The translations under genes were made by a program, and so were the position numbers. Source: Pseudomonadota bacterium (GTDB lineage Bacteria > Pseudomonadota > Alphaproteobacteria > Rhodobacterales > Rhodobacteraceae). Taken from it: a stretch of DNA of 34,916 nt. Below, in pieces: positions 1 through 20,905 of the stretch; the stretch's first letter is position 1, and every line of letters starts with the position of its first letter. Location of the stretch: contig JBCCTH010000001.1 in assembly GCA_039198835.1 (NCBI GenBank), positions 1-34,916 of the forward strand, written 5' to 3'. Under the pieces are notes generated by a model. It was not told where the DNA came from, did no database searches, and saw nothing but the letters and a program-made list of their open reading frames with translations.

Positions 1-261
1 GGCGACCGTGGCGCAAGAGGACCCAAAGGCGAAATAGGCGATCGCGGCGAGCAGGGCGAGAAAGGTGAGCGCGGAGAGCGCGGGCCCAAGGGCGAAAAAG
101 GTGATCGCGGCGAGAAAGGCGAACAAGGCGATCGCGGCGAGAAGGGTGAAAAGGGCGATAAGGGTGACACCGGACCGCGCGGACCCAAAGGCGATAAGGG
201 CGATAAGGGTGACAAGGGCGATAAAGGCGCGCCCGGCATGCCCGGAATGCCCGGCATGGGC
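1..261 (+). repeat. 9-bp-period coding repeat (Gly-X-Y collagen triplets), including GDK x4 at 190-225
   Basis: GGN codon every 9 nt; ggcgataag-type units in tandem. Confidence 0.9.
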
Positions 262-822
262 GGTGGCAAGAACATCGATATCGACATCGACATCGATGTG
301 GACTTTGACGTCGATGTCGCCATCAACCGCGGCGGTGGCCATTGCTATGGCGGCGGCGGCGTGAAGGGCGGCTCGGCAGATTTCGGTAGCGTGATGCAGA
401 AGATCACCTCTGAGATCAACGAGCTCATCGAGCAGCTGAAAGCCGCGATCTCGCAGATCATCACCAAGTTCCTGGAGCAGATCCAAGGCATCATGGATTC
501 CATGAAAGGTATGAACCAGATGGGTTATACCTACATGGGCAACATGGGCGCCATGGGCGGCGGGCATGATTGCAACACAGCCGCCGACAAGAAGCAGGCG
601 CTGATCGACTCCATGAAGAAAGAGATGGGCGGCACGGCCGACTCCATGCCTGACATGATGGCCGGTTCCATGAACCAGATTCAGGGCATGATGGTCAGCT
701 ACGCTCAGCGTCCGACAGATATGGGGGCCACGGATCTGCGCAAAGGCGCGGACGCCGTTCTCGATCAGCTTGGCCGCGATCTCATCGCCAAGGCGGAATG
801 GCAGCTCAAGACCGCAGCCTAA
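1..822 (+). CDS. Collagen-like (Gly-X-Y repeat) protein with Met/Gly-rich C-terminal region, 5'-partial; T3SS-associated
   Basis: Frame 1 is open from base 1 and reads [21 protein letters not shown]...[15 protein letters not shown], about 28-29 uninterrupted triplets. It continues in frame into track ORF 238..822 ([15 protein letters not shown], an amphipathic helix, a Met-rich tail). The true start lies upstream of the window. Confidence 0.85.
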
Positions 823-833: not shown

Positions 834-864
834 GCTCCGGGCGGGACATCCTTTCGCCCGGGGC
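834..864 (+). other. GC-rich stem-loop after the collagen-like gene (terminator or mRNA stabiliser)
   Basis: gctccgggcg (834-843) pairs with cgcccggggc (855-864) with one G-U pair; no clear U-tract follows. Confidence 0.5.
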
Positions 865-942: not shown

Positions 943-1119
943 ATGGCTCAAGTAAATCAGGCTGGTGCAAACCAGGATATCCAGGGCTCGGAAGAAAACC
1001 AGGAAGCGCTCGAGCAGCGTTTTCAGGACCTCTACGTCGCGATGATGGAAAAGAAAGTGTCGTTCAAGGAGGCCACAGAGCCCTTCCGGACCGACAACGA
1101 GAACTCCTCGAAGGGCTAA
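943..1119 (+). CDS. Small 58-aa T3SS-associated protein; candidate needle/pilus subunit
   Basis: Strong RBS AGGAGA 931-936, ATG 943; MAQVNQAGANQDIQGSEENQEALEQRFQDLYVAMMEKKVSFKEATEPFRTDNENSSKG; lies just before sctV and is flanked by hairpins. Function inferred from size and position only. Confidence 0.7.
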   Translation: MAQVNQAGANQDIQGSEENQEALEQRFQDLYVAMMEKKVSFKEATEPFRTDNENSSKG

Positions 1120-1228: not shown

Positions 1229-3331
1229 ATGCGTAAGGATATTGCGCTTATCCTGTTGATCCTCGCGATCCTCGCGTTGATCGTCGTGCCCCTCGGCCCG
1301 ACGATGCTCGATATATTGCTGTCGGTGAACCTGACGCTCTCGGTCTTGCTGTTGATCGTGGCGGTTTACCTTAAGCATCCGGCGGATTTTCCGACATTCC
1401 CGACTGTCATCCTGCTGGGCACTGCCTTCAGGCTGGCGCTTTCGATCTCGACGACCCGTCAGATTCTTTCAGAAGCGGAAGCGGGCGAAATCATCGAGAC
1501 GTTCGGGACCTTCGTGATCGGCGGGAACATCGCCATTGGTCTCATCGTCTTTCTGATCATCACGGTCTTCCAGTTCCTCGTCGTCACCAAAGGCGCGGAG
1601 CGGGTCGCCGAGGTCAGCGCGCGTTTCGCGCTTGATGCGCTTCCCGGCAAACAGATGTCGATCGATGCGGATCTGCGCGCGGAGGCGATCGACAAGCAGA
1701 CCGCTCAAGAGCGCCGTGAAGCGCTTGCCCGTGAAAGCCAGTTCTTCGGGGCGATGGACGGCGCGATGAAGTTCGTCAAAGGCGATGCCATCGCGGGCCT
1801 GATCATCATCTTCATCAACCTGATCGGCGGCATCTCGGTGGGGATGCTCGTTCTTGGGTTCACCTTCGAGGATGCTGTCGCCACCTACACGCTCCTGACG
1901 CTCGGCGACGGCCTTGTCGCGCAGCTTCCAGCGCTTCTGATGGCGCTTTGCGCGGGTATCGTGACGACCCGGGTCGATAGCACCGAGAACATCGATTTGG
2001 GCTCGGACATCTGGCGCGATCTCGCGAGCGACCCCCGCGTGCCAGCCGCCGCGGCGGGGATCGTTGTGCTTATCGGCCTGGTGCCGGGCTTTCCTTTTGT
2101 GAATTTCGCGGTGGGGGCGGGTGTTCTCCTCTTTGTCTCCTTCTCGATGCGCCAGGTCATCGCGGCGCAAGACCGCAAACTCGCTGAAGCGCCGCCCCTC
2201 GCTGAAGACCCGATGCAAGAGGCCGAGGAAGAAAGTGCCCCGGCTCCGGCGATCAATGAAGGCGTGCGCTCTGATCGGATCGTTTTGCGTATCGGCGATG
2301 AGCTCGCGAGCGAGCTCAACCTCATGCAGCTCGACACGACCGTTCAATCTTTCCTCGCGCGCTATGATCAGACCCGCGGTCTGGCCTTTGACCCCCCTTT
2401 CATCGATATCACGACCCGCAGTGGCCGGCATGGGCGGCTTTTTGAAGTCGTGCTCGATGAAGTGCCTGTTGCGTCCGAGACGATCCCCGAGAACTCTCTC
2501 CTTTTGCGGTGTGATGCGTCGCTGCTTGATGCGCTCGGGTGCGACCCCGACGATGTCAAACGCGTGCGCTGGCATGAATTCGACGGATATTTCGCGCCAC
2601 GCGAGGTTTGGCAGGGCGCGGTTGACGCGCAGCTCACGCCGATCCTCGTGGAAGAGCACATCGCCACGGTTGTGTTCCGGGTGTTTGAAACGAATGTGGG
2701 TGTTCTTTTCAGCGAAGATCACTTCAACCGGTTCCTCGAGCAACTCGCGCGGACATCGCCCCGCCAGCAAGCGCAGCTTGAGGCGCAATCTGACCGCACG
2801 ATCTTCTTCCAGACCCTGCGCTATCTCGCCGAAGATGGTGTGCCGCTGCGCCCGGTGCCGTTCATTGTCGATACCTATCTGACCTGGGTCCAGACCCATG
2901 GAAATGTGGGCGCGCTTGAGCTTTCAGAATACATGCGCGGCTCTCTCAAGCGTCAGATCTGTCATGCCATGGTCGGATCTCGCGACATGCTTGGCGTGGT
3001 TTTGCTTGATCCGGCGATCGAGAGCTACGCGCGCAATGCGGTGATCGAAACCGAAGGGGCCGACAGCCCCGCGGGCAGCGATGGCTTGCCGCTCGCGCCC
3101 CATATCTCCGAAGGCCTTCTGGGCCAGTTTCGCAAGCTCATATCTGGGCTGAGCGCGGATGATCCGTTCCCGGTCGTGATCGCTTCATCGAATATTAGGC
3201 GCAGATTGCGCAATTATCTCTCGGCCAATCGCATCGCGCTGCCTGTCATGGCACCGCACGAGCTTTCGCCCGAAGTCAATGTCCACCCCATCGCCCGGTT
3301 CCGCATGCCGGACATGGATGAGGCGTATTAA
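1229..3331 (+). CDS. sctV: T3SS major export gate protein SctV (LcrD/HrcV/FlhA family)
   Basis: N-terminal TM helices; FHIPEP motifs GAERVAEVSARFALDALPGKQMSIDADL and FFGAMDGAMKFVKGDAIAG; large cytoplasmic domain. Confidence 0.95.
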   Translation: MRKDIALILLILAILALIVVPLGPTMLDILLSVNLTLSVLLLIVAVYLKHPADFPTFPTVILLGTAFRLALSISTTRQILSEAEAGEIIETFGTFVIGGNIAIGLIVFLIITVFQFLVVTKGAERVAEVSARFALDALPGKQMSIDADLRAEAIDKQTAQERREALARESQFFGAMDGAMKFVKGDAIAGLIIIFINLIGGISVGMLVLGFTFEDAVATYTLLTLGDGLVAQLPALLMALCAGIVTTRVDSTENIDLGSDIWRDLASDPRVPAAAAGIVVLIGLVPGFPFVNFAVGAGVLLFVSFSMRQVIAAQDRKLAEAPPLAEDPMQEAEEESAPAPAINEGVRSDRIVLRIGDELASELNLMQLDTTVQSFLARYDQTRGLAFDPPFIDITTRSGRHGRLFEVVLDEVPVASETIPENSLLLRCDASLLDALGCDPDDVKRVRWHEFDGYFAPREVWQGAVDAQLTPILVEEHIATVVFRVFETNVGVLFSEDHFNRFLEQLARTSPRQQAQLEAQSDRTIFFQTLRYLAEDGVPLRPVPFIVDTYLTWVQTHGNVGALELSEYMRGSLKRQICHAMVGSRDMLGVVLLDPAIESYARNAVIETEGADSPAGSDGLPLAPHISEGLLGQFRKLISGLSADDPFPVVIASSNIRRRLRNYLSANRIALPVMAPHELSPEVNVHPIARFRMPDMDEAY

Positions 3332-3344
3332 GGAGGATCACCCA

Positions 3345-4091
3345 ATGCAGTGGTTGCGATCCAAACTGCTTTTGCTTTGCACTCTTTTCGCCCTCGCCGG
3401 CTGTCAGGAGGTGCTCTATTCCGAGCTGTCAGAAGAGGACGCCAACGAGATGGTGGCGCTCCTCGTGCTTTCGGGCATCCCGGCGAGCCGCCAAAACGAT
3501 GCGGGATCAGGATATTCGGTCCTCGTGGAGGAGGCCGATATCGCTGTGGCGGTCACTGTTCTCAAGAATTCCGGTCTGCCGCGCGCCAAGTTTGCCTCCA
3601 TGGGCGAGATTTTCGGCGATGTCGGCGTCGTGGGGACACCGTTTGAGGAGCGCGTGCGCTTTGCCTATGCGACAAATCAAGAGCTTTCGAACACCATTTC
3701 GCAGATCAAGGGTGTCGATAATGCGCGTGTCCATGTCGTGATCCCCGAGAAAAAGCGCTTCGGGTCCACGGATGAGCCCGCGTCTGCCTCGGTTGCGATC
3801 TTCCATGACCGCAGCTTTGAGCCGTCAAGCTATTCGCCGCGGATCAAGACGCTGATCGCCTTCGCCGTGCCTGATCTGGCGATTGAGAACATCTCGCTAA
3901 GTTTCTTTTTGTCGCCGGGCTTTGTGGTTCAGCCGCAGCTTGAAGCAGAGACAGCGCCCGGCGCGGCCATGGCGCAAGGGTATAACCTGCCCGGCGGACC
4001 GGCCGCTTTTCCCTTCTTCGGGGCGCTCCTTTTTCTCGTGCTTCTTTTCGTCGTGCGCCTTGTGATGCTCGCATGGCGCAGGGTCGGCTGA
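3345..4091 (+). CDS. sctJ: T3SS inner-membrane ring lipoprotein SctJ (YscJ/HrcJ)
   Basis: RBS AGGAGG 3331-3336, ATG 3345; lipobox LAGC; LYSELSEEDANEM, GLPR, ELSNTISQIKGVDNARVHV, SASV motifs; C-terminal TM helix; 248 aa, much shorter than FliF. Confidence 0.93.
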   Translation: MQWLRSKLLLLCTLFALAGCQEVLYSELSEEDANEMVALLVLSGIPASRQNDAGSGYSVLVEEADIAVAVTVLKNSGLPRAKFASMGEIFGDVGVVGTPFEERVRFAYATNQELSNTISQIKGVDNARVHVVIPEKKRFGSTDEPASASVAIFHDRSFEPSSYSPRIKTLIAFAVPDLAIENISLSFFLSPGFVVQPQLEAETAPGAAMAQGYNLPGGPAAFPFFGALLFLVLLFVVRLVMLAWRRVG

Positions 4092-4094
4092 CCC

Positions 4095-4718
4095 TTGGCT
4101 GAGGCGCAAACATATCCGTCGCTCAAGCGGTTTCTCGCGCCGAGCCTGGCTGATATCGGCTCAAAGCAGCGCGAGACCTTCGCCAATAGCTTTGGTGATG
4201 CCGCGCTGGGCCTTGCGATCCTGGAAAACAGACGCCTTGAGGAGCGGGTGCTCGAGCAGATCGTCAATAGTGAGTCCGCGCTTGACGCAAAGCAAATTGA
4301 GGGCACGCAAGACGCCGTTGTGATCGAGCTTCTCATGGCGCGTTCTGTGGCCGAACTTGAGCTTCTGATGGGCATGGTCTGGCATAAGCTGACCGTTCTT
4401 GACTGGCTCACCTGGGGGCGTTTGGGGCTTATGCTTCCGGGCGTTGATGGGGTTATCGCACGGATTGCCGTGAGCGCCGTTGATGCTAAAGCGCGCGCGG
4501 ATGCAGGCGCGCCCAACGAAGCGCTTGCAGATCTGCCGCCAAGCCATTTGCGCGAGGATGGCGCGCTCCTTTTGGCCTCGTGGATGGCGTCGCTGTCGCC
4601 CGAGCTTGCCGCCCGGCTTCAGCTCTTCGCCGCGATCGAACCGGGCCACCCCGATGATCGCTTCGCCCGGCTGGTGCAGATTTCAGCGCAGGCGCTTTAT
4701 GCGGCGGGGGCTTCCTGA
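4095..4718 (+). CDS. Hypothetical T3SS protein in the SctK position
   Basis: 207-aa helical ORF filling the gap between sctJ and sctL; TTG start; stop overlaps the sctL start (TGATG). Assignment by synteny only. Confidence 0.6.
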   Translation: MAEAQTYPSLKRFLAPSLADIGSKQRETFANSFGDAALGLAILENRRLEERVLEQIVNSESALDAKQIEGTQDAVVIELLMARSVAELELLMGMVWHKLTVLDWLTWGRLGLMLPGVDGVIARIAVSAVDAKARADAGAPNEALADLPPSHLREDGALLLASWMASLSPELAARLQLFAAIEPGHPDDRFARLVQISAQALYAAGAS

Positions 4719-5389
4719 TGGCGTTTGATAGCGCGGCTCCGATCCGCATCCACAAGGCAACGCTTCTGACCGCGAATGAATACGCCGCCCGGCAAGCCGA
4801 GGCGGAAGACATTCGCGTGGCCAAGTCAGAGGCCGAGCGCATCACGGAGGCCGCTCAGGCAGAGGCCGCCCGGATCGTCGCCGATGCCCAGGCGCGCGCC
4901 GATGAACTGGATGCCGAGATGCGGCGGATCGCCGATCAGGAGCTCGGACGCTTCGTTGAAACCCACGCCATCGACGAAGCCGCGCGCGCCGTGCAGCAAG
5001 TGCTCGAGACCTCAAGCGCGATGAAAAGTGATTTTGACGCGCTGGGGCCATGGTTCTCGGACTTCGTCGAGACCGCGCTCGAACGGATCACCGGTGAATT
5101 GCCCAAGCGCAAGCTTTGGGCGGGCATTATCCGGGAAGGTCTCAAAGACAGCCGCGAGCGCTGGTCGCTCACGCTGCGCTGCCATCCCAAGCTCGTTGAT
5201 CTGATGAACGAGGTGCTTGAGGAAGATGACAAACTCGCCGAGGCCATCGTCGCCGTTGAAGGCGATCGCGATCTCCCGCGCGAGGCGTGTTATCTCGTGA
5301 GCAAGAAGGGCGTTCTCGATATCTCTGTCAAAACCCAGGTGAAAACGCTCGTGCGCGCCATCGAATACATGACCGAGACGCCGCAATGA
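4718..5389 (+). CDS. sctL: T3SS stator SctL (HrpE/YscL/FliH family)
   Basis: Ala-rich coiled coil (AERITEAAQAEAARIVADAQARA); C-terminal LRCHP...GDRDL...CYLVSKKGVLDISV; directly precedes the ATPase. Confidence 0.85.
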   Translation: MAFDSAAPIRIHKATLLTANEYAARQAEAEDIRVAKSEAERITEAAQAEAARIVADAQARADELDAEMRRIADQELGRFVETHAIDEAARAVQQVLETSSAMKSDFDALGPWFSDFVETALERITGELPKRKLWAGIIREGLKDSRERWSLTLRCHPKLVDLMNEVLEEDDKLAEAIVAVEGDRDLPREACYLVSKKGVLDISVKTQVKTLVRAIEYMTETPQ

Positions 5390-6714
5390 CCCTCCCGCTC
5401 CATCTCCAGGAGCGCGCGGCGGCGCTCACCGGCCTAAGGGAGCGTTTGGGCGAGATGACGCTGGCAGAGCCGTTCGGCACGGTCGTGGATGTCAAAGGGC
5501 CGCTGGCGCGTGTGGCCGCGCCTGATTTCCGCGTCGGAGAGATGTGCGAGTTTCTCATGCCCGCCGGTCGCGCGCTTCTGGGCGAAGTCATCGGTCTTCA
5601 GGGTGATTTCACATTGGTGACCCCGCTCGGCCCCATAGAGGGGATCGGGCAGGGGACGATGGTCCGAAAGCGCAGCGAAGGGTTTACCATTCCGTTTTCG
5701 TCGGCGCTGCTCGGCCGCATGGTGACCGGCCTTGGCGAGGTGGTGGGCGAGCCGCTGGACGGGCCTGTGAAACGTGTCCCCGTGAAAGCCGCGCCGCCTG
5801 AGCCAGCCGACCGCGCGCCCATCGATACAGCGCTTCCCACCGGATTGCGCGTCATTGACGGGTGCATGACCCTTGCCCGAGGTCAGCGCGTTGCGGTCAT
5901 CGGCCCGCCTGGCGCGGGGAAATCGACGCTCCTTGCCGCCATCACCGCCCATTCTGATGTCGATGTCGTGGTCTTTGGCCTCATTGGCGAGCGCGGGCGC
6001 GAAATTCAGGAATTCGTCACGCGTAAAATCCCCGACGAGACGCGCCAAAAGCTCGTCGTGGTGGCCGCGCCCGCTGATAAGCCAGCGCTCGAACGGCTTT
6101 ATGCGGCCAATACCGCCACGGCCATCGCCGAGGGGTTCCGCGACCAGGGCAAATCCGTCCTTTTGGTAATTGATTCAATGACGCGGGTTGCCCGCGCCAT
6201 GCGCGAAGTCGGCCTTGCCGCCGGTGAGCCACCCACGCGCCGGGGCTATCCGGCTTCTGTTTTCGCGCAACTTCCAGAACTCATTGAGCGGCCCGGGCCA
6301 GCACCGGTGGGGGAGATCACGGCGATCTACTCGGTGCTGGCCGAGGGAGAGACAAGCTCAGACCCTATCGCCGAGGAAACCCGGTCGCTCGTGGATGGCC
6401 ATATCATCCTCGATGCCAGCATCGCGGCAGGCGGGCGCTACCCCGCCATTAACGTGACCGAGAGCCTGAGCCGCCTTATGGCCGAGGTTGTCGAGGGGCC
6501 GCATCAGCGCATGAATACCGCGATCCGGGCCTGCCTTGCGAAATATGCTGAAATCGAGCTTCTCGTGCAGATCGGCGAATATAGCGCCGGGCAGGACCCG
6601 GAGGCAGATCGCGCGCTCGAACTCTATCCCTATGTGCAAAAGTTCCTAAAGCAGGGCCCGGAAAAGCATGAGTTCGGCGAAACGCTTGAGTGGATGCGGG
6701 AGATGCTGGAATGA
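5386..6714 (+). CDS. sctN: T3SS ATPase SctN (YscN/FliI family)
   Basis: ATGA overlap with the sctL stop; Walker A GPPGAGKST; LIGERGREIQEF; LLVIDSMTRVARA; GEPPTRRGYP; DGHIIL; YPAINVTESLSRLM. Confidence 0.95.
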   Translation: MTLPLHLQERAAALTGLRERLGEMTLAEPFGTVVDVKGPLARVAAPDFRVGEMCEFLMPAGRALLGEVIGLQGDFTLVTPLGPIEGIGQGTMVRKRSEGFTIPFSSALLGRMVTGLGEVVGEPLDGPVKRVPVKAAPPEPADRAPIDTALPTGLRVIDGCMTLARGQRVAVIGPPGAGKSTLLAAITAHSDVDVVVFGLIGERGREIQEFVTRKIPDETRQKLVVVAAPADKPALERLYAANTATAIAEGFRDQGKSVLLVIDSMTRVARAMREVGLAAGEPPTRRGYPASVFAQLPELIERPGPAPVGEITAIYSVLAEGETSSDPIAEETRSLVDGHIILDASIAAGGRYPAINVTESLSRLMAEVVEGPHQRMNTAIRACLAKYAEIELLVQIGEYSAGQDPEADRALELYPYVQKFLKQGPEKHEFGETLEWMREMLE

Positions 6715-7202
6715 GCGGCGCCGTGAAGCTCACCCAGATCCGCGATCTGCGGGCGTTGAAGGTAGACCGGCTCACCGCGCGCGCGATCGATCTGCGCCGC
6801 GCCTTGGTCGCTGCCCAGCGCAATGCCGCAAACATGATCGAGCGCTATCGCGCGCTATGCGCGAGCGAGCCGGAAATGATTGATCGCTTGCTCGATCAAA
6901 CGCTGCGGATCACAGAACCCGCAGCCCGCCTCGCGGCGATGAACCATGCGGTGAACCGCGTGCGCGATGTGCGGGCCCAGGCCTATCGCGAGATGTCGGC
7001 CGCCGAGGCCGCTGTGATGGGCATTGAACAGGACATCAAGGAGACAAGCAGCGCGCTTGCGGAAGCGCAAGCGCATCTCGAGGGCATCGAGCGCGCATGT
7101 CAGGAGGCCGGGCGCAAAGGGCGCGCCCGCGCGGAAGACATCGAAGATGACAACGTCCTCGAAACCTTCGCCGGGCTAAGGGGAACGACCGCATGGGCAT
7201 GA
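6711..7202 (+). CDS. sctO: T3SS stalk protein SctO (YscO/FliJ-like coiled coil)
   Basis: 163-aa charged coiled-coil ORF coupled (ATGA) directly after the ATPase, the canonical position. Confidence 0.7.
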   Translation: MSGAVKLTQIRDLRALKVDRLTARAIDLRRALVAAQRNAANMIERYRALCASEPEMIDRLLDQTLRITEPAARLAAMNHAVNRVRDVRAQAYREMSAAEAAVMGIEQDIKETSSALAEAQAHLEGIERACQEAGRKGRARAEDIEDDNVLETFAGLRGTTAWA

Positions 7203-8236
7203 TCGATATCATCGACATGCGCGGCGGGCGTAGCCAGGCGAAGAAGCCCGTGACGCTCCCAAGCGTCGCGCGCAACGCCGCGGCCCCGCGAGGGGCCGTG
7301 GCGCGGCTCGATATTCGCGGCGAGGTGATCCTCCAGGGGGCAGAGATCGCTTATGAAGCCGCCTATATCGAGCCGCGAACCGCATGCCAGGGCGTTGTGA
7401 TCGATGCTGACATTGGCGGTCTGACTGTCACGCTCGCGCTTGAGGGCGATGCGCTCAGGGCGATCAGGCTTGATCGGCTCGCCGGTCTTTCGCTCAATCC
7501 TGCCTCCATGGCGCTGGCGGTTGAGCACCTTCTGACCTCTGACATCGACTTCTTTGAAGCCGCCAAGGATACCGCGCTCTCGCTGCGCGAGGTGTCACTC
7601 GGCCGGTTTGATACCAGTCAGGCCGTTCTCGCCCTTCGCCTGACCTGGCCCGATGGCACGGGCCTGACAGGCTATGTCTGGTCGCCGGACAATGCCGCGC
7701 TCGCTCGGGCTCTGGCCGAGCGCTTTGAAGCCAAGCGCCGCCCGGAAGCGTCTGGCCCGCGCGTCAGGGCCGCCATCATCGGGCCAATTGCCGAGATCCC
7801 CAGAAAGCGTTTGCGCAAGGTGACGAAGGGGGCTGTCTTTTGCCCTGCGCCCGGCTGGGCAAACCTCGCAGATGAGCTCTTTTTGCTGGTCAAGGGCGAG
7901 CATCTGATCCGCTTGACGCCCCATGGTCATGGCTATGCCACAATGGGAGACGAAACAGACATGCATTCTCTGGGTGGGGGCACCACAGGTGATGACATGA
8001 CAGACACTTCTCGAAAAGGGTCGCTGGCTAATCCCCGTGCCTTGGTGACGGTGGAACTCCATCGCCGTGACATGACCCTGGCCGAACTCAGCGATCTCCA
8101 GAAAGACGATATCCTCGATCTCGATCTTTCCGGCATCGAGACAGTCACGCTCGCGGCGGACGGCAAGCCCTTTGCAAAGGGCAAGCTCGTTCAGCTCGAT
8201 GACGTGCTGGGCGTCATGGTGTCAAAGCTGCTCTGA
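7193..8236 (+). CDS. sctQ: T3SS sorting-platform/C-ring protein SctQ (C-terminal SpoA domain)
   Basis: C-terminal VTVELHRRDMTLAELSDLQKDDILDL...VTLAADGKPFAKGKLVQLDDVLGVMV; precedes sctR; alternative start at 7199. Confidence 0.88.
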   Translation: MGMIDIIDMRGGRSQAKKPVTLPSVARNAAAPRGAVARLDIRGEVILQGAEIAYEAAYIEPRTACQGVVIDADIGGLTVTLALEGDALRAIRLDRLAGLSLNPASMALAVEHLLTSDIDFFEAAKDTALSLREVSLGRFDTSQAVLALRLTWPDGTGLTGYVWSPDNAALARALAERFEAKRRPEASGPRVRAAIIGPIAEIPRKRLRKVTKGAVFCPAPGWANLADELFLLVKGEHLIRLTPHGHGYATMGDETDMHSLGGGTTGDDMTDTSRKGSLANPRALVTVELHRRDMTLAELSDLQKDDILDLDLSGIETVTLAADGKPFAKGKLVQLDDVLGVMVSKLL

Positions 8237-8247
8237 GCGCGCGGCCC

Positions 8248-8886
8248 ATGGAAAACCTTTCGCCCCTCGTCGTAGGCTATCTGGCCTCCTTTTTTCTCGT
8301 GGCGCTGCTCGCGTTCACGGCGTTCATCAAGGTGTCGGTCGTGTTGATGATCGTGCGCAACGCGATCGGCCTCCAGCAGGTCCCTTCGAACATGATCGTG
8401 ATGGTGCTGGCGCTCTTTTTGTCGAGCTTCATCGCGCTTCCATCGATTGTCGCGGCGTTTGACGCCATCGAGGCCCTTGGCCCGCTTGAAAACTCAGCCG
8501 ATGCGCTGGTTGCGATCTGGACAGCAGGCCTCGCCCCGTTTCAGAGCTTCATTTCGCAGCATACAGACCCCCAGCATCTGGGCTTTTTCGTGGAAGTCGC
8601 GGGCGAGGTTTGGGAAGGGTCGGGCGTGACCGCCTCGCCTGACATGGCGATCATCCAAGTGCCCGCTTTCGTGCTCACGGAGCTGACGGCGGCGTTTGAG
8701 TTCGGCTTCCTGCTTTATCTGCCCTTCGTTGCCATCGATCTGGCTGTGACGGCGATCCTGATCGCGCTGGGCATGCAGCTTGTGCAGCCGACGATCATCT
8801 CGGTGCCGTTCAAGATCCTGCTCTTCGTGGCGGTTGATGGCTGGGCGCGTTTGGTGGAGGGTCTCATGCTCTCCTATACGGTGTGA
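8248..8886 (+). CDS. sctR: T3SS export apparatus SctR (YscR/FliP family)
   Basis: TAFIKVSVVLMIVRNAIGLQQVPSN; PAFVLTEL; GFLLYLPFVAIDL; ISVPFKILLFVAVDGW; 212 aa without the N-terminal signal extension of FliP. Confidence 0.95.
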   Translation: MENLSPLVVGYLASFFLVALLAFTAFIKVSVVLMIVRNAIGLQQVPSNMIVMVLALFLSSFIALPSIVAAFDAIEALGPLENSADALVAIWTAGLAPFQSFISQHTDPQHLGFFVEVAGEVWEGSGVTASPDMAIIQVPAFVLTELTAAFEFGFLLYLPFVAIDLAVTAILIALGMQLVQPTIISVPFKILLFVAVDGWARLVEGLMLSYTV

Positions 8887-8890
8887 ACCG

Positions 8891-9151
8891 ATGGAGGCTT
8901 ATGTTCAGTCGCTCGTTCAGTTCATGGCAGCGGTGGCGGTTCTTGCCGGTATCCCGTTGGCGGTGGCGACATGTGTCGGCCTGATCGTCAGCTTCTTTCA
9001 GGCCGTCACGCAAATCCAGGATCAGACGCTCGCGCAGACAGCGAAGATCGTCGCCATCGCTTTCACGTTTATCATTTTGGGGGGCGCGCTCATCGCGCCG
9101 CTCCTTGAAGGCACAACGCATCTCTTCGAGACATTCTGGCAAAGGCAATAG
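8891..9151 (+). CDS. sctS: T3SS export apparatus SctS (YscS/FliQ family)
   Basis: 86 aa from ATG 8891; VGLIVSFFQAVTQIQDQTL motif. Confidence 0.93.
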   Translation: MEAYVQSLVQFMAAVAVLAGIPLAVATCVGLIVSFFQAVTQIQDQTLAQTAKIVAIAFTFIILGGALIAPLLEGTTHLFETFWQRQ

Positions 9152-9160
9152 GGGGCGGGC

Positions 9161-9973
9161 TTGGATCAGTTCATCGCCACGCTTCTTGAATTGCCGATCG
9201 CTGCGTCGTTCTTTCTACTCTTGGCGGGCGTGTCGCGGGCGCTGGGCGCGATCTTCGGGCTTTGGGGGCTCTACTTCATCCTCGGCCCTGCGGTGATCGT
9301 GCGGACTGTTCTGGCGCTCATTCTCTCGGCCCCGATGATATTCGCGCAGATCGACAGCTATGTTGCGCTCAGCGAGGAAACCCAGCGCTTCGCGCTTCTC
9401 ACCATCCCGCTGCGCGAATTCATCATCGGCTTCGCCATTGGTCTTCTGATGTCGCTCCCATTTTTCGCGATCATGGGCGCGGCTCTCGTGATCGAGCAAT
9501 ATCGCGGAGATTTCAGCCCTGGCATAGAGGCCCCCGAAAATGCGCAGGTGGGCTCATACGGCGCGCTCAATATGATCATGGTGCTCTTCATTTTCGTAGA
9601 GCTTGGCGGTTTCATGATCCTCGTGGCGACGCTCTATGACAGCTACGCGCTCATTGAGCCGGGCGTGCCGGGGTTGAGCTTTCCGGCCGGTTTTTCTGCT
9701 GCGCTGGCGGGCATATTGCAGAATGTTTTCGTGACACTCATCGCGTTTGCTTTGCCTGTCCTTTTGCTTCTGATGTTGCTCGAATTCGCGATCAACATGG
9801 CCTCGCGCCTGGCCGACCAGATCCAACTCCCCTCGATTGATTTTCTCGCCAAGAACCTCGCGCTGCTCTTTGCCATGCCGGTGCTTGTTCTGGCCCTGTC
9901 GCGCGCGATGCAGGCGACGTTTGATAATGCGCCGCCGGTGCTCCCCCTGCTTGCGGAGATCATCGGCCTATGA
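9161..9973 (+). CDS. sctT: T3SS export apparatus SctT (YscT/FliR family)
   Basis: Hydrophobic 270 aa, TTG start; REFIIGFAIG...GAALVIEQYRG; LYDSY; between sctS and sctU. Confidence 0.88.
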   Translation: MDQFIATLLELPIAASFFLLLAGVSRALGAIFGLWGLYFILGPAVIVRTVLALILSAPMIFAQIDSYVALSEETQRFALLTIPLREFIIGFAIGLLMSLPFFAIMGAALVIEQYRGDFSPGIEAPENAQVGSYGALNMIMVLFIFVELGGFMILVATLYDSYALIEPGVPGLSFPAGFSAALAGILQNVFVTLIAFALPVLLLLMLLEFAINMASRLADQIQLPSIDFLAKNLALLFAMPVLVLALSRAMQATFDNAPPVLPLLAEIIGL

Positions 9974-11010
9974 GCGAAGACCAAAGCGAAGAAAAGACCG
10001 ACCCAGCCTCAGAGCGAAAGCTCAGGAAGCTGCGCGAGGATGCGATTATCCCCACGAGCCAGATGGGCACGAACTTCGTCGGCTTCGCGGCGGGTTTCGG
10101 AGTCTTACTCCTGCTCTTGCGGCAGATGATCGATGCGCTGGCTGACGGCTTTGATACCGCTTTCGCTTCGCTCAACTCAGAGGCCGCCAATGACGAAGGG
10201 CTGGTCTGGTATTTTCTGATCGAGATACATTCGCCAGTGGCCATGGTCATGCTCGCCGTCCTCGGCGCGGGCATCCTGTTTCGCATTCTGGTGAACAAGG
10301 GCTTTGTCTTCTCGCTCAAACAGGTGAGCCCGTCGCTCGACAAAGTGAACCCGGTGACAGGCTTCAAGAACCTCTTCAAGGGCCGCACCTTGACCGAATT
10401 TGCCGCGACGCTCACGCGGTTTTTGGTCCTTTTGGGGACGTTCGGTTATCTGGCGTGGTTCTGGTGGCCCACCTTGGCCAACCTTGATCTCTGCTCGCCC
10501 GCCTGCGCGCTGCCAGTGGCCTGGGACATCACCAAAGCGATCCTCATCGCGACGGCGGCTTTGCTTCTGGTATCGGTGGCTTTTGATGTCGGCATCCAGC
10601 AGGCGTTTTTCCTGATGGAGCACCGGATGACGAAGACCGAGGTCAAAAAGGAACTCAAAGAGATGCTGGGCCAGCCTGAAGTGCGCCAGGAGCGCAACCG
10701 TCTGCGCCGCGACAGCGCGGCGATGGCGGGCTCAGTCGGCGTGGCGGCGGCGACGGTCTATTTCCATTATGGCGATCGCGTCGTCGCGCTGGCGTTTGAT
10801 CCGATCAAAAACCCTCTCCCCAAGATCGCGGCAAAGAGCCGGGAGGCGCGACGCACCATCGAGATCCTCCAGGATCTCAACGGGCGCGGCGTGCCTGGCA
10901 TGGAAGATGAACAGATCGTTGAGGCCTGCGAACTCGTGCCAAATGGCAGCCCAGTACCGCGCGCGATCTTCGCGCCGTTGGCAACGCGCCTGCGCTATCT
11001 GTTGGGATAA
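9970..11010 (+). CDS. sctU: T3SS export switch protein SctU (YscU/FlhB family), lacking NPTH
   Basis: SEEKTDPASERKLRKLRE; KVNPVTGFKNLF; RMTKTEVKKELKEMLGQPEVR; VALAFDP..PLPKIAAK; ATGA overlap with sctT. Confidence 0.93.
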   Translation: MSEDQSEEKTDPASERKLRKLREDAIIPTSQMGTNFVGFAAGFGVLLLLLRQMIDALADGFDTAFASLNSEAANDEGLVWYFLIEIHSPVAMVMLAVLGAGILFRILVNKGFVFSLKQVSPSLDKVNPVTGFKNLFKGRTLTEFAATLTRFLVLLGTFGYLAWFWWPTLANLDLCSPACALPVAWDITKAILIATAALLLVSVAFDVGIQQAFFLMEHRMTKTEVKKELKEMLGQPEVRQERNRLRRDSAAMAGSVGVAAATVYFHYGDRVVALAFDPIKNPLPKIAAKSREARRTIEILQDLNGRGVPGMEDEQIVEACELVPNGSPVPRAIFAPLATRLRYLLG

Positions 11011-11023: not shown

Positions 11024-11905
11024 TCAGTCGTGGCCGCCAAGCTGGCGTTGGCGCATTCGCTCGCGAAAGCGCGCCCGGTCGCTTTCATCATAATCTCCCG
11101 CGCATTTATGGCAGCGCACGCCATCCTCGAATTCAGGGCGCGTGCGATCTTCGGGCGCGAGCGGACGACGGCACGCATGACACAGACTATGCGGCCCTTC
11201 CTCAAGCCCATGGGTGACACTGACCCGTTTGTCGAAGACAAAGCAGCCGCCGCGCCAGGCGCTTTCGCTTTTAGGCACCTCTTCGAGATATTTCAGGATG
11301 CCGCCCTTGAGATGAAAAACATCCCTCACGCCCTCGCCCAAAAGATAATTGGTTGATTTCTCGCAGCGGATGCCGCCCGTGCAAAACATGGCGATCCGTT
11401 TGCCTTCGAACCGCACACGGTTGGCTTGCCACCATGCAGGAAACTCACCGAAGCTCTTCGTTTCAGGATTGATCGCGCCGTCAAAGCTTCCGATAGCGAC
11501 CTCGTAATCATTGCGCGTGTCGATGGTTACCACGTCAGGCGCTGAGATGAGCGCGTTCCACTCCCCGGGGGGCACATAGCGCCCGGTGGTCTCGGCGGGC
11601 CGCACCTGGGGCTGACCCATCGTGACAATCTCTCGTTTCAGGCGCACTTTCAGCTTTTTGAAGGGCGCGGCCTCCGCTGTGCTCTCTTTCCAGTCAAGAT
11701 CGCCGCAGCCCGGCAAGGCCCGGATCACAGCCAGCGCCGCATCAAGACCGGACCGGGTGCCTGCGATTGTGCCGTTAATGCCTTCGGGCGCCAAAAGCAG
11801 CGTGCCTTTGATCCCTTCGGCAAGGCAGGCGTCGCGGAGCGGCGCGCAGAGGCCTGCCGGGTCATCAAAGGCTGTAAAGCGGTAAAGCGCGGCGACATGA
11901 AACAT
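11024..11905 (-). CDS. trhO: Rhodanese-domain tRNA uridine(34) hydroxylase TrhO (YceA/UPF0176)
   Basis: MFHVAALYRF start; GTLLLAPEGINGTIAG; KVRLKREIVTMG; IDTRNDYE; FCTGGIRCEK; HLKGGILKYL. Confidence 0.9.
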   Translation of the reverse strand: MFHVAALYRFTAFDDPAGLCAPLRDACLAEGIKGTLLLAPEGINGTIAGTRSGLDAALAVIRALPGCGDLDWKESTAEAAPFKKLKVRLKREIVTMGQPQVRPAETTGRYVPPGEWNALISAPDVVTIDTRNDYEVAIGSFDGAINPETKSFGEFPAWWQANRVRFEGKRIAMFCTGGIRCEKSTNYLLGEGVRDVFHLKGGILKYLEEVPKSESAWRGGCFVFDKRVSVTHGLEEGPHSLCHACRRPLAPEDRTRPEFEDGVRCHKCAGDYDESDRARFRERMRQRQLGGHD

Positions 11906-12027
11906 CGCGCCCAGATAGGCATTTGCCTTCTCGGCCTCAATCCCTAGCCTTACCGTGAGCCGCCACAAACCGGAGCAGAGCGCTGACCCTTCTTCGCAAG
12001 AAGCTTGCAAAAGCGAAACTCAAAGGC

Positions 12028-12666
12028 GTGTCCGCTCAGGCAACCGACCGGGCGCGCGCGCAACTTGCGAGCTATATCGAGGCGCAGCGCATGGGCGACG
12101 ATGCGCTCGCAAAAGAGCTCCATGGTGGTCTTGCGGCGACGCGCATCGGCCAGATCAATCTCGGCGCGACAGCCGAACCTGCCGATCTTGCCTGCAAGAT
12201 GGGCTGCGCGTTTTGCTGTATCCTGACCGGAGAGGATGGCGGCGTCATGACCGGCGCAGAGGCCCGGGTGCTCTACAAAGCGCTTGCGCCGCTGGCCGGT
12301 AAACCCGATGGCCGCGATTGGCATCCCAAGGCCTGCCCCTCGCTTGATCCCGAAACCCGCAAATGCCGCGCCTATGAGGCCCGGCCGATGATCTGCCGCA
12401 GCTATGCAAGCCGCGATGTGGACGCTTGCAAAAGCATCGCCGAGGGTAAGCCAGCGGAAGGGGCTGGCGTGCGCGCGGCTTACGGCACCTATCTGACGGT
12501 TCATGCGCTCGCCCGCGCCGCCCTGGGCCCCGGTCGCGCGCCGACATATTCGCTCCGCAAACTCGCCGCCGCCGCCCTCGAGGGCCGGGCCTTCGAAGAG
12601 GCCTTGAAAGAAGCGCGCCACAAACCAAGCGAGTTGCAAGAAGAACGCGTTCGCGTCACGCTGTGA
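12028..12666 (+). CDS. YkgJ/UPF0153-family cysteine-cluster protein
   Basis: CKMGCAFCC and CPSLD...CRAYEARPMICRSY motifs; GTG start. Confidence 0.8.
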   Translation: MSAQATDRARAQLASYIEAQRMGDDALAKELHGGLAATRIGQINLGATAEPADLACKMGCAFCCILTGEDGGVMTGAEARVLYKALAPLAGKPDGRDWHPKACPSLDPETRKCRAYEARPMICRSYASRDVDACKSIAEGKPAEGAGVRAAYGTYLTVHALARAALGPGRAPTYSLRKLAAAALEGRAFEEALKEARHKPSELQEERVRVTL

Positions 12667-12696
12667 TAAAACGCGCAGCCGAAAAGGGAATTTGCG

Positions 12697-13293
12697 ATGT
12701 CACAGGCGCTCATCATCATTGATGTACAGAATGATTTTTGCCCAGGCGGTGCGCTCGAAGTGCCCGGTGGCGACGAGATCGTGCCGGGCATTAACGCGCT
12801 CATGGGAGATTTCGACGCCGTCATCATCACTCAGGATTGGCACCCCGCCGGGCATTCGTCTTTCGCGTCAAGCCATCCCGGCAAAGCGCCCTATGACCTC
12901 ATCGATATGCCCTACGGCCCGCAGGTTCTGTGGCCCGATCATTGTATTCAGGGCAGTGCGGGCGCGGAGTTTCATCCAGACCTTGACGTGAACCGCGCTG
13001 ATCTGATCATCCGCAAAGGCTATAACCCGGCCATCGATAGTTATTCCGCGCTTTTTGAAAACGATCATACAACCTCGACGGGCCTTGAAGGCTATCTCAA
13101 GAACCGGGGCCTGAGCGAGCTGACTTTCGTGGGCCTCGCGCTGGACTTCTGTGTGAACTACTCGGCGGTAGATGCGGCCAAAGCGGGCTTTCGATCGCGC
13201 GTGAAGCTTGATTTGTGTCGCGGCATTGATCTCAACGGGTCGCTCGCGGCAGCCCGGGCCGGAATGGCGGACGCGGGCGTTGACGCGGCTTAA
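12697..13293 (+). CDS. pncA: Nicotinamidase/pyrazinamidase
   Basis: IDVQNDF, QDWHP, LWPDHC, RKG...DSYSA, GLALDFCV. Confidence 0.95.
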   Translation: MSQALIIIDVQNDFCPGGALEVPGGDEIVPGINALMGDFDAVIITQDWHPAGHSSFASSHPGKAPYDLIDMPYGPQVLWPDHCIQGSAGAEFHPDLDVNRADLIIRKGYNPAIDSYSALFENDHTTSTGLEGYLKNRGLSELTFVGLALDFCVNYSAVDAAKAGFRSRVKLDLCRGIDLNGSLAAARAGMADAGVDAA

Positions 13294-13757
13294 CTCAAAA
13301 TCGCGAAGCCCGCGACATAGCCCGCAGCCGCAAGCACGCTGATGGCCATGACAGCGGCCGCGCCTGTCTTGTTGTCTGGGCTCGCAGCGGGGCTTTGAGC
13401 CTCATCTGACGCGACCATGAGCGCACCATAGGGCCGCACCGCCGAAAGATGAACGAGGCACTGCGCCAGATCAAATTCACCGTCGCGCGCCGCTTCGCCG
13501 TGATCGGCCTCGCACGTGATCGCTTCAATGAGGCAGGCCATGAGATAAGCATGACTGCTCTCATGCTCGAGCGCGTAATACCCGGCTGGAAATCCGCTCG
13601 CGACACAGCCAAGCCCGATGCCCGCCTCATGGAGGATCGACTTTGTGCGCGCGCTCGCTCTCGCCGCGGCTTGGGCTGTCGCAGGGTCTCGGAAGGTCGC
13701 GAAATGCAGGCCTTCTGAGCCCGCTTCTCCAAAATCTATGTCATAATTGAGCTGCAT
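13290..13757 (-). CDS. Hypothetical protein with C-terminal hydrophobic helix
   Basis: 155-aa ORF filling the pncA-pncB gap; purine-rich upstream (GGGGCAGGG); terminal AAAVMAISVLAAAGYVAGFAILS. Confidence 0.6.
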   Translation of the reverse strand: MQLNYDIDFGEAGSEGLHFATFRDPATAQAAARASARTKSILHEAGIGLGCVASGFPAGYYALEHESSHAYLMACLIEAITCEADHGEAARDGEFDLAQCLVHLSAVRPYGALMVASDEAQSPAASPDNKTGAAAVMAISVLAAAGYVAGFAILS

Positions 13758-13910
13758 CCCTGCCCCACCTGCCCGTATCGCGCGAGCATTACCCCGGGAA
13801 TGTGGAAGGATTTCGACGCGTTAATGGTAAGGAAACGAAAACTCCTTGCCTAATTTGGCGCGCTTGGGTTCTGTGCTTCGGCCAAAGCATGGCTGTTCTG
13901 GGAGGAACCC

Positions 13911-15203
13911 ATGGTCGACATCGCCGCGCGCGTCTGGAACCATAAATGGAAGATCGACCCCATCGTAAGGTCGCTCATCGATACTGATTTCTACAAGCTC
14001 TTGATGTGCCAGTCCGTTTTTCGCAATCGGCTCGACACCCAAGTTACTTTCAGCCTGATCAATCGCTCCAGCGATATCCGCCTCGCAGAGCTCATCGACG
14101 AGGGCGAATTGCGCGAGCAGCTGGATCATATCCGTTCGCTTTCGCTGTCGCGCGGTGAAAGCACCTGGCTTCGTGGGAATACGTTTTACGGTAAACGGCA
14201 GATGTTTCGGCCTGACTTCATGGAATGGTTCGAGAGCCTGCGCCTGCCGCCCTACCACCTCGAAAAGCGCGATGGCCAGTATGAGCTCACTTTCGAGGGC
14301 GCTTGGCCTGATGTCATGCTGTGGGAAATTCCCGCGCTTTCGGTCTTGATGGAGCTGCGGGGCCGGGCTGTCGTCAACGCCATGGGCAAGTTTGAGCTTC
14401 AAGTGCTTTACGCGCGGGCCATGGCCAAGCTCTGGGAGAAGATGGAGAGCCTGCGCAAGCTTGATGCGCTGCGCATTGCTGATTTCGGCACGCGCCGCCG
14501 CCATTCCTTCCTCTGGCAGGATTGGGCCGTTCAGGCGATGATCGAAGGCCTGGGCGAGGGCTTTACCGGCACCTCCAACTGCCTCATTGCGATGCGTCGC
14601 GAGGTCGAAGCCATTGGCACCAACGCCCATGAACTCCCGATGGTCTATGCCGCGCTCGCGGAAAGCGATGAAGCGCTGGCAAAAGCGCCCTATGATGTCT
14701 TGGCTGACTGGCACGAAGAGCATGATGGCAATCTCAGGATCATCCTGCCCGATACCTACGGCACGGCGGGCTTTCTTGAACGTGCGCCCGATTGGCTCGC
14801 GGGCTGGACGGGCATCCGCATCGATAGCGGCAAGCCCGAGGAAGGCGCGGAAACCGCCATAAGGTGGTGGCAAGAGCGCGGTGAAGACCCGATGCAAAAG
14901 CTCATCATCTTTTCCGACGGGCTCGATGTCGACCGCATTGAGGCGTTGCACCGCCAATTCTCAGGCCGAGCCCGCGTCAGCTTCGGTTGGGGGACGCTTC
15001 TGACCAACGATTTCCGCGGGCTTACGCGCGATGATGCGCTCGCGCCCTTCTCGCTCGTGTGTAAGGCGGTGAGCGCCAATGGCCGTGCCACCGTCAAACT
15101 CTCGGATAACCCAAACAAGGCCATGGGCCCCGCCGAAGAGATCGACCGATACAAGCGCGTCTTCGGCGTCGGCGCTCAAAAGCGTCTCGAAGTCGTGGTT
15201 TAG
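13911..15203 (+). CDS. pncB: Nicotinate phosphoribosyltransferase
   Basis: SLIDTDFYKLLM, DFGTRRRHS, GTSN, GTNAHE, LPDTYGT, RIDSG, FSDGL, VKLSDNPNKA; RBS GGAGGA. Confidence 0.96.
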   Translation: MVDIAARVWNHKWKIDPIVRSLIDTDFYKLLMCQSVFRNRLDTQVTFSLINRSSDIRLAELIDEGELREQLDHIRSLSLSRGESTWLRGNTFYGKRQMFRPDFMEWFESLRLPPYHLEKRDGQYELTFEGAWPDVMLWEIPALSVLMELRGRAVVNAMGKFELQVLYARAMAKLWEKMESLRKLDALRIADFGTRRRHSFLWQDWAVQAMIEGLGEGFTGTSNCLIAMRREVEAIGTNAHELPMVYAALAESDEALAKAPYDVLADWHEEHDGNLRIILPDTYGTAGFLERAPDWLAGWTGIRIDSGKPEEGAETAIRWWQERGEDPMQKLIIFSDGLDVDRIEALHRQFSGRARVSFGWGTLLTNDFRGLTRDDALAPFSLVCKAVSANGRATVKLSDNPNKAMGPAEEIDRYKRVFGVGAQKRLEVVV

Positions 15204-15219
15204 GTTCTGCTTGCCGGGC

Positions 15220-16167
15220 TTATCCCCTGAGTGCAGACCCAGGATCCAGCCTTTCGACGGCGCGCAAGGCGCGCTCCGCTTGCTGGCGCTGCAACGCTCT
15301 GTCGCCCGCCGCCCGAGAAATCGCCCAACCGCAGGACGCCATCGCGCGCAACATGACGAAGAAGCGAAGCCGCGCGAGGTTGGGCGGGGTGCGCAAGGTC
15401 GCATAGCCCGCCAGGAGCGCCTCTTCGAGGAGCGCGAGCTTCGGGTGGCCCTGATGCTGGACGAGCGCTGTCCCCAGATCATAGTCGCGGTAACCGAAGC
15501 CGGCATCGTCAAAATCGATGAGCGCGAGCCCTTCGGGTGTCGCCAGAATGTTCTCCTGGAGACAGTCGGCATGGATGAGCCCGGCATCGGCCTCTTCAAG
15601 CTCGACGAGCTGATCATAGGCGCGCGCCTTGGCGCGCAAGAGCGTCTCGGCCTCGCTGCTCGAAAGCGTCGGGTTCTCCCAGAACCTGCCCCAAAGCGGC
15701 TCTTCTCCCAAAAGCGCCTCGGCATCCCAGGCAGGGCGTTGAATGTCGTCGGTGAGGATCGCGTCGGTGGCATCGTGGAAGGCGGCGATCAGCGCGCCAA
15801 CCGAGGCATAAAGCGCGCGCAATTGAGCGTCGCTCCCCGCGAGCTCTTCGCCGCTTTGGCCGATCGCGCGTCCCGCAAGCCAGCTCACCGCGCTTGCATA
15901 TTGCCCGCCCTGCACCGCGCGCAAAAAGCTGCCATCGCTTGAGGCCACGGGCTTCGGGCATGGGAAGCCGATCTCTGCAAGCCGCGCCATCCACCGCAGC
16001 TCGCTCTCGATGGCCATGCGCGACTGATAGCCCGCGCGGTGCAGCCTCAGAGCCACCCGCGCGCCGCTGATCCGCGCCTCATAGACCCTGTTTTCACGGG
16101 CGGCGATGAGCCTTGGGGGCTCTTCAACGCTGCCCCAGAAGCCTGCGATCTCGCTCAACTCTTGCAT
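15220..16167 (-). CDS. APH/type II homoserine kinase-like phosphotransferase (hydroxylysine kinase-like)
   Basis: RENRVY, LRLHR, LIHADCLQENIL, IDFDDAGFG..YDL; start 16167 overlaps the end of the upstream aminotransferase-like gene. Confidence 0.85.
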   Translation of the reverse strand: MQELSEIAGFWGSVEEPPRLIAARENRVYEARISGARVALRLHRAGYQSRMAIESELRWMARLAEIGFPCPKPVASSDGSFLRAVQGGQYASAVSWLAGRAIGQSGEELAGSDAQLRALYASVGALIAAFHDATDAILTDDIQRPAWDAEALLGEEPLWGRFWENPTLSSSEAETLLRAKARAYDQLVELEEADAGLIHADCLQENILATPEGLALIDFDDAGFGYRDYDLGTALVQHQGHPKLALLEEALLAGYATLRTPPNLARLRFFVMLRAMASCGWAISRAAGDRALQRQQAERALRAVERLDPGSALRG

Positions 16168-17420: not shown

Positions 17421-17835
17421 CGGGGATCACCTTTCCCCGTGCTGCCTTCACGGCGCCGCGCTGGGCCTTGGCGGCCAACCTTCGCCGCTTTGAGGCAAGG
17501 GTCGGTTTGGTGGGAATGCGTCGCATGGGCTTCACAGCGGCAGCAGAGATGAGATTCTTGAGGCGCTGGCGCGCGATCTCGCGGTTGCGGGCCTGGCTTC
17601 GCGTTTCTTCGACGCGGATGATGAGCGCGCCGTCCTGGGTCCAGCGTCGCCCGGCCAGCCTTTTGAGGCGCGCCTTCACCGGCGCGGAAAGATGCGGCGA
17701 CCGCTCCGCCTCAAAGCGCAACTCCACCGCCGTCGAGACCTTGTTGACGTTCTGCCCGCCCGGCCCGCTCGAGCGCTGAAAACTCTCGGTGAGCTCCCAG
17801 TCCGCCAGGGTGATATCGGGTGTGACAGAAATCAT
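17413..17835 (-). CDS. arfB: Alternative ribosome rescue factor B (peptidyl-tRNA hydrolase)
   Basis: SSGPGGQNVNKVSTAV; RSQARNR; basic tail RIPTKPTLASKRRRL. Confidence 0.95.
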   Translation of the reverse strand: MISVTPDITLADWELTESFQRSSGPGGQNVNKVSTAVELRFEAERSPHLSAPVKARLKRLAGRRWTQDGALIIRVEETRSQARNREIARQRLKNLISAAAVKPMRRIPTKPTLASKRRRLAAKAQRGAVKAARGKVIPDE

Positions 17836-17921
17836 GGCGTTCCCATATCACGCCTTGGTCGCTTCGCCACGCCTTGCTGATCGCGGCCGGATGGGTCTAG
17901 TTAGCGGTAACGGAGGTGCCC

Positions 17922-18602: not shown

Positions 18603-18606
18603 AGCC

Positions 18607-20881: not shown

Positions 20882-20905
20882 CGCGCAAACCCCGCCCATG
20901 CCGCC

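Follow-up and report, generated by a model that had tools for sequence, protein, structure and literature searches.

A conserved collagen-like gene family at an Rhc-like type III secretion locus of marine alphaproteobacteria

What is a collagen-like gene doing among type III secretion system (T3SS) genes? This question is raised by the left edge of a 34,916-nucleotide stretch of DNA (the window), which starts contig C1 in the 329-contig assembly of genome G000; G-, L- and C-labels denote the genomes, loci and contigs of our comparison set.

A coded collagen repeat at the contig edge

In the ORF reading of the window, frame +1 is open from the first base to a stop codon at 820-822. Thirty consecutive Gly-X-Y triplets occupy positions 1..270 of the forward strand (28 when the count stops at the second GMP, nt 252) and form the 3' block of a collagen region that is open at the contig edge. 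An earlier note had described at least 28 perfect, charged triplets with few Pro, in frame with an ORF at 238..822; this description was borne out, with 70% of the X and Y positions charged and Pro at 7 of 60. Each of the 20 acidic residues occupies an X position and each of the 22 basic ones a Y position, with 16 K/R-G-D/E junctions, and the commonest triplets are GEK and GDK (5 each), GDR (4) and GPK (3). Gly is written with four different codons, the longest Gly-X-Y run in 20,000 codon shuffles of the ORF was 10, and the Pfam Collagen family (PF01391) matched the ORF above cut-off (E 7e-17). Contig record 6 of run X2 further lengthened the window by 163 nt in frame, partly matching its repeat units. 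The repeat is real and coded at the protein level. The ATG at 238 was rejected as gene start, being the internal Met of a GMP triplet, and Ser-Pro repeats on the reverse strand were dismissed as a shadow of the collagen frame.

Behind the triplets follow, on the same strand, an alternating hydrophobic/Asp stretch of IDIDID type (274..327), also present in the G162 orthologue, in protein P0004 and in the VWD-GDPH proteins described below, and a C-terminal helical module (373..822) recognised by alignment A2 and a structure model, which consists of a long amphipathic Gln/Leu/Ile helix, a Gly/Met-rich linker and a helical hairpin. The collagen stop precedes the sctV start (1229) by 407 bp and both genes are on the forward strand, in agreement with the co-orientation and spacing of about 400 bp reported before. 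In the interval lie a 13-bp hairpin without a T run (834..864, forward strand; z -3.2 for 820-942) and a conserved 58-aa ORF (943..1119, forward strand), not mentioned in the earlier note, 49-74% identical in four relatives and modeled as a disordered N-terminus plus one long helix. Strong hairpins flank this small ORF in G053 and G209 as well, and neither a sigma-70 promoter nor an intrinsic terminator was found at 780-1300 of the window. The 58-aa ORF has a weak likeness to the sctI-like gene and likely encodes a pilus or needle subunit; its size and build would fit rhizobial pilins as presented in the available part of PMC3973906. At locus L004, a Pro/Cys-rich stretch stands in frame ahead of this ORF, in place of the collagen gene.

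A candidate 5' half behind sctC1

Only one other contig end of G000 carries a comparable repeat, that of C8 (G000:C8:25857-26376), where the frame is again left open. The collagen head on C8 comprises 69 hydrophilic residues followed by 34 or more triplets, with 19 acidic residues at X, 20 basic ones at Y and zero exceptions. Its ATG follows the stop codon of sctC1, an N-domain-only gene, by 6 nt, and further upstream stand sctI-like, sctD, sctX-like and sctY genes. The C8 and C1 ends do not overlap, leaving the middle of the gene unassembled. The assembly break at the C8 end is attributable to a 126-bp tandem duplication in the repeat, on which read depth heaps up as expected of a collapsed repeat unit. 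Both runs with the stretch, X1 and X2, are marine metagenomes of the same study, and neither yielded a contig bridging the C8-C1 gap; a short motif read from one loose contig end is absent from G000.

From synteny and repeat make-up we infer that C8 and C1 carry the two halves of one collagen gene, since G053 holds sctI-D-X-Y-C1-collagen-small ORF-V-J on a single contig. With its 5' half ending C8 directly behind sctC1, the gene would thus stand inside the T3SS cluster, not ahead of it. The earlier proposal that it heads the T3SS genes is therefore to be abandoned: the window begins at a contig end, and sctI-like, sctD, sctX-like, sctY and sctC1 lie upstream on C8.

Contig C44, which starts inside an IDID-type ORF, was rejected as the partner of the C8 end, as it parallels the C-terminal half of a collagen-free VWD protein of G162. 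The housekeeping genes flanking the cluster suggest a host of Rhodobacteraceae type, one of them being 67% identical to DacC of an Aliishimia locus. Another contig end of G000 bears a 13-triplet Gly-Glu-Thr repeat (G000:C33:3-119).

A gene family in a conserved slot

The gene order sctC1, collagen gene, small pilin-like ORF, sctV is intact in three genomes of the family Rhodobacteraceae (G053, G162, G209), with intact collagen proteins of 680-784 aa, and G053 repeats the whole order of C8 plus C1. On the complete G209 chromosome the cluster is split, sctD (G209:C1:2823720-2824718) lying 1.3 Mb from the sctC1-collagen-sctV block. In seven further alphaproteobacterial genomes (L013, L014, L079, G097, G819, G820, G821) the collagen gene adjoins sctC1 or is one gene away. 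Over 11 genomes, it is located downstream of sctC1 in five (G000, G053, G162, G209, L079) and divergent from it in four, while a response regulator gene intervenes in two. Intact family copies measure 622-784 aa and contain 85-158 triplets; the acid-at-X/base-at-Y pattern is not family-wide, L079 and G097 being Gly-Ala-Thr rich.

Inspection of up to 10 kb on each side of 80 sctV loci retrieved runs of at least 18 triplets in four (L005, which equals G209, L013, L014 and L079). SctJ matches were obtained in 15 of 400 family genomes, and the regions around all 15, several of them on short contigs, revealed a collagen gene near the T3SS in four (G053, G162, G209, G097). In the remaining 11, some on short contigs and including the sister systems L003 and L004, no such gene was seen, and hence it is not a core T3SS part. 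Searching 35 T3SS-positive genomes for collagen brought in three more, of Neomegalonema type (G819, G820, G821), where the gene stands head-to-head with sctC1 and is cut by the contig end as in G000. The earlier note had asked whether homologues occur mostly away from T3SS loci; every one with visible context is located at such a locus. Collectively, these data define a gene family that is real, conserved and apparently undescribed. At the edge of the collagen-free sister T3SS L003, an open frame of more than 1900 aa was recorded (L003:2-5722).

Elsewhere, the slot after sctC1 is occupied by DUF1521 proteins (L029, L036) or by Gly-rich helical ORFs (L030, L032, L046), and judging by their sequences the genes in this position of other Rhc-like loci also appear substrate-like. 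In a midpoint-rooted FastTree of 89 SctV rows, which excluded 4 duplicate loci and all sequences below 600 aa and in which long branches are flagged, the 8 collagen-labelled rows need 4 changes versus 7.8 for shuffles.

This distribution bears on whether the product is an ordinary adhesin that leaves the cell by another route, e.g., type I secretion, and just rides in the T3SS island. Type I secretion substrates likewise have no Sec signal and bind Ca2+. About 2 kb before the T3SS cluster, C8 carries a giant RTX/cadherin-like adhesin, longer than 3100 aa, along with genes for type I ABC and membrane-fusion proteins (L001:1-12447), and collagen as such is not rare in the family, generic matches exceeding the cut-off in 49 of 251 genomes. 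However, the adhesin region is not conserved in G053 and G209, which have unrelated genes on that side, no RTX nonapeptides occur in the collagen family, and the gene resides inside the operon in four genomes and beside sctC1 in lineages needing the 4 label changes on the SctV tree. We thus regard export by such a route as very unlikely.

Signal-less proteins with Ca2+ loops and a helical C-terminus

The family layout comprises a hydrophilic N-terminus without Sec signal, a collagen region, a two-EF-hand insert, a second collagen region and a harpin-like helical C-terminus. A Sec h-region is absent from 7 of 7 family N-termini, with a best 10-residue hydropathy of at most 0.74, whereas the same measure gave 2.36 for SctC1 and 2.92 for SctJ. 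The C-terminal part contains neither an LPxTG anchor nor a transmembrane stretch (best 19-residue hydropathy 0.67). The 5' end that the earlier note had proposed to recover is probably the one on C8, which is hydrophilic and devoid of a Sec-type hydrophobic stretch, and neither a Sec signal nor an anchor motif, the features it had held to speak against T3SS export, turned up in the family.

The 43-residue insert splits the collagen region in five relatives (80% mean column identity), each with two canonical 12-residue Ca2+ loops; three further members have single EF-hand loops, and what is assembled of G000 does not include the insert. Among 400 family genomes, A1, a profile of this insert, gave strong matches in four (E about 1e-27), the next best matches (7e-11) being generic EF-hands. 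All four are among the 15 SctJ-positive genomes, and none of the 385 SctJ-negative ones was hit; among class genomes the count was 1 of 400, namely G209. Because A1 was built from the very rows that score strongly, the information lies solely in the lack of such matches in other genomes. A metagenome scan with A1 yielded at least 35 generic EF-hand loci with no collagen among the matches listed, and a plasmid search no match.

The C-terminal module aligns among G000, G053, G162 and G209 at 22-29% identity (alignment A2), and its model is all-helical (pLDDT 73, pTM 0.64). The amphipathic helix, with a hydrophobic moment of 0.58, is in this model a candidate trimerisation domain. Other family members have different Gln/Leu helices in a Gly-rich context, and Gly content in the family amounts to 22-29%. 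The window part has two Cys residues; the count was 1-4 in each of three relatives and zero in the L014 fragment. Homologue searches with the C-terminal part returned the self-like P0001 only, and nothing in 40 relatives (14 same-genus), while those with the EF-hand region returned one unrelated calcium-binding protein only. Foldseek returned no match at E up to 0.001, and VIA-align showed an uninformative likeness to generic helical bundles (best Z 8.2); the PDB sequence search with A2 and A3 gave nothing credible, and the Atlas held no usable match for the C-terminal part.

Collagen-free sister proteins with VWD and GDPH

A search of 1.84 billion representatives with A2 retrieved four hits. 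In one of them, the collagen-free P0004, the IDID stretch and the C-terminal helical module are combined with a GDPH-bearing VWD domain. This protein has matches in 3 of 400 other family genomes, each of them SctJ-positive, and in C44 of G000 (73%). This distribution is a non-circular, independent link of the C-terminal module to the T3SS. The VWD-GDPH proteins (G000:C44:3-1589, equal to L164, and L173-L177) are signal-less and have partly harpin-like N-termini, IDID stretches and Ca-loop C-termini; within the family they are confined to genomes that carry the T3SS (4 of 401), and about 2.6 kb separate the G162 gene from sctD, both being on one strand. They are likely further T3SS substrates.

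A T3SS of rhizobial type

Downstream of the small ORF, profile matches on the forward strand identified sctV (1229..3331), sctJ, sctK-like, sctL, sctN and sctO-like genes (3279..7202), and sctQ, sctR, sctS and sctT (7193..9973), sctQ overlapping sctO with no room for sctP. At 9970..11010 of the same strand lies sctU, without the NPTH autocleavage motif. The remainder (11027..34916) is taken up by common genes of housekeeping and metabolism (rhodanese, aminotransferases, RecQ, YaaA, thiolase, HmgA). The available parts of PMC3574062 and PMC3459982 define the Rhc type by a split secretin with N-domain-only SctC1, a Y4yQ-like SctD, no sctP and no rhcC2 in the cluster; here, too, we found an N-domain-only SctC1, a Y4yQ-like SctD and neither sctP nor rhcC2 in the cluster. 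The host cluster is thus rhizobial-type (Rhc-like), resembling subgroup III or T3SS-2, with an SctV that forms its own long-branched clade in the FastTree (midpoint root, long branches flagged). Since no second sctV/flhA and no flagellar ATPase matched in G000, this T3SS is its only assembled type III gate.

The missing sctP bears on the suggestion in the earlier note that the collagen protein is a length-determining element in place of SctP, that is, a molecular ruler for the needle or pilus. No sctP lies between sctO and sctQ, no Flg_hook/FliK-type domain exists in G000, and protein length does differ between genomes. Yet sctP is missing in all Rhc subgroups covered by the available text of PMC3574062. 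SctU lacks NPTH regardless of collagen, in 10 of 10 aligned family members as well as in Mesorhizobium loci without a collagen run within 10 kb of sctV; among 35 SctU matches, the 6 with an NPTH-like motif all fall outside the Rhc-like group, at least 4 of the rest being truncated. The Rhc literature compared makes no use of the term NPTH in its text. The C-terminal switch domain of SctP (PF02120-like) is alpha/beta, unlike the all-helical C-terminal model, L003 and L004 are collagen-free, and strict Gly at every third residue would be a trimer constraint, needless in a single extended chain. A ruler function is, consequently, the least probable reading that we considered.

A dedicated T3SS secretin barrel was not found in G000, G053, G162 or the complete G209. 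Each of these genomes has one secretin barrel gene, of Tad type, which lies inside the tad locus in G000 (C143) and G209 (L205). The T3SS may borrow this Tad secretin, a sharing made plausible by the Tad-derived origin of the Rhc secretin RhcC2 in the accessible part of PMC3459982. That plausibility also weakens the case for the collagen protein as an envelope component, either periplasmic or kept with SctC1, that serves as spacer or scaffold for a T3SS without its own secretin barrel. Such a role would suit a gene always beside sctC1, with a spacing of just 6 nt in G000, and genomes with a single, Tad-type secretin. Nevertheless, the collagen region differs widely in length (85-158 triplets in intact copies) and would reach far past the periplasmic span, the sister systems L003 and L004 do without collagen, and unrelated substrate-like genes fill the slot elsewhere; an envelope scaffold is therefore rather unlikely.

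Relation to known proteins

T3SS cargo passes the channel unfolded, whereas collagen needs three chains in register. Scl/Lcl proteins leave by other routes, Sec/sortase or type II. Streptococcal Scl1/Scl2 and Legionella Lcl share the charged, Pro-poor Gly-X-Y repeats, but the family described here has no Sec signal or LPxTG, carries other non-collagen domains and is T3SS-linked; NCBIfam matches of the window protein to Scl/Lcl-type models were partial, confined to the repeat and far below cut-off. In CFSR proteins (PF19079), mostly of Bacillota, collagen stands beside an EF-hand as here; their Atlas clusters were the nearest (score 0.76, a lead only), and none of the family members scanned with Pfam at E up to 0.05 matched PF19079. 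Burkholderia Bucl4, according to the available part of PMC4565658, carries 7-30 triplets on an SctT-type inner-membrane protein, whereas here the gene is free-standing and substrate-like, not a membrane-protein fusion.

Harpins (HpaG/Hpa1, HrpW-type) are, like the collagen protein, Gly-rich, signal-less and T3SS-encoded, with Gln/Leu amphipathic helices (PMC6353989 and PMC3973906, as far as available), and the C-terminal helices resemble those printed for HpaG in the accessible part of PMC6353989. In contrast to harpins, the collagen protein has Cys, 85-158 triplets and EF-hand loops, and comes from marine alphaproteobacteria with no plant response known; no harpin family of Pfam matched in the collagen family at E up to 0.1 and 0.05. 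The DUF1521 proteins NopE and VIC_001052 (MIIA) are T3SS-linked and disordered, fold on Ca2+, and have EF-hand-like loops and GDPH autocleavage, as described in the available portion of PMC6506597, and thus provide a precedent for Ca2+-induced folding of a disordered T3SS-secreted protein. They share the slot after sctC1 in L029 and L036, and GDPH with the VWD sister proteins; however, the collagen protein itself is without GDPH and the sister domain matches VWD, not DUF1521. The host system also departs from known Rhc-family T3SSs in its own SctV clade, in having no NolX/HrpK1 match and in the collagen gene after sctC1.

By the criteria tested, the collagen protein falls outside harpins, Scl/Lcl adhesins and rulers, and would work like a harpin-type helper while being built like a bacterial collagen. 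In the literature searched, which covered few subscription papers, there was no report of a collagen-like T3SS cargo, and Bucl4 was the sole collagen-T3SS link; the word collagen does not occur in the available text of PMC3574062 and PMC3973906.

The harpin likeness leads to a further reading, in which the protein ends up on or inside a eukaryotic host cell and serves as translocation helper or effector, its helices inserting into the membrane and its collagen mimicking host matrix. The amphipathic helix and the harpin-like composition would suit this role, harpins form pores and aid translocation in the available account of PMC3973906, and the translocators NolX and HrpK1 were not found in G000, G053, G162 or G209 (positive controls matched 1 of 5 each), so that another protein might fill their role. 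On the other hand, the module has no transmembrane stretch, a stalk of about 90-160 triplets with Ca2+ loops would suit a Ca2+-rich extracellular setting over the host cytosol, and no host is known, all of which render host delivery unlikely.

A probable exported collagen fibre

The collagen product probably leaves through the T3SS and acts outside the cell as a helper or an adhesin whose stalk is collagen. The earlier note had suggested a T3SS substrate that serves as needle extension, adhesin or mimic of host matrix; the lack of Sec signal and anchor together with homologues at T3SS loci argue for such a substrate, be it an adhesin, a matrix mimic or a fibre associated with needle or pilus. 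Starting from the observed repeat, slot, family architecture and tie to this T3SS, the steps beyond gene context can be envisaged as follows. The chains would leave unfolded through the SctN/SctV T3SS by means of an N-terminal signal; as the only secretin barrel is a Tad-type gene, their passage across the outer membrane is likewise surmised. After export, Ca2+ in seawater would fold the EF-hand insert as a hinge, the amphipathic C-terminal helices would bring three chains into register, and K/R-G-D/E charge pairs would replace hydroxyproline in stabilising the triple helix. The long charged stalk of the resulting calcium-binding, rope-like surface fibre could then work with the pilus as helper or adhesin, touching a host or surface.

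A collagen that leaves through a T3SS would represent a novel class of cargo, and one in which post-export assembly could be tested, with a candidate built-in Ca2+ switch. The family would also supply the first tangible set of substrates, and with it a function amenable to testing, for a patchily distributed, uncharacterised T3SS lineage of Rhodobacteraceae from the sea and their relatives (15 of 400 family genomes), and it enlarges the pool of biomaterials by long, Pro-poor collagens with diverse chemistry. More tentatively, it is conceivable that a stripped Rhc-type T3SS, devoid of SctP, of SctU cleavage and of any known translocator and with a secretin borrowed from Tad, has turned from injector into exporter of an animal-like extracellular matrix, in which Ca2+-switched collagen and self-cleaving VWD-GDPH proteins along the pilus would form an adhesive mesh on hosts or surfaces.

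The recognition motif of the flagellar gate has a consensus akin to F-x-x-x-hydrophobic. An F-x-x-x-hydrophobic motif at residues 21-30 was scored in 13 of 14 candidate substrates versus 23% of 1516 background ORFs, in a count whose residue range and start codons were set post hoc and whose homologues are not independent. As a hint only, it recalls the flagellar gate recognition motif presented in the available part of PMC8983047.
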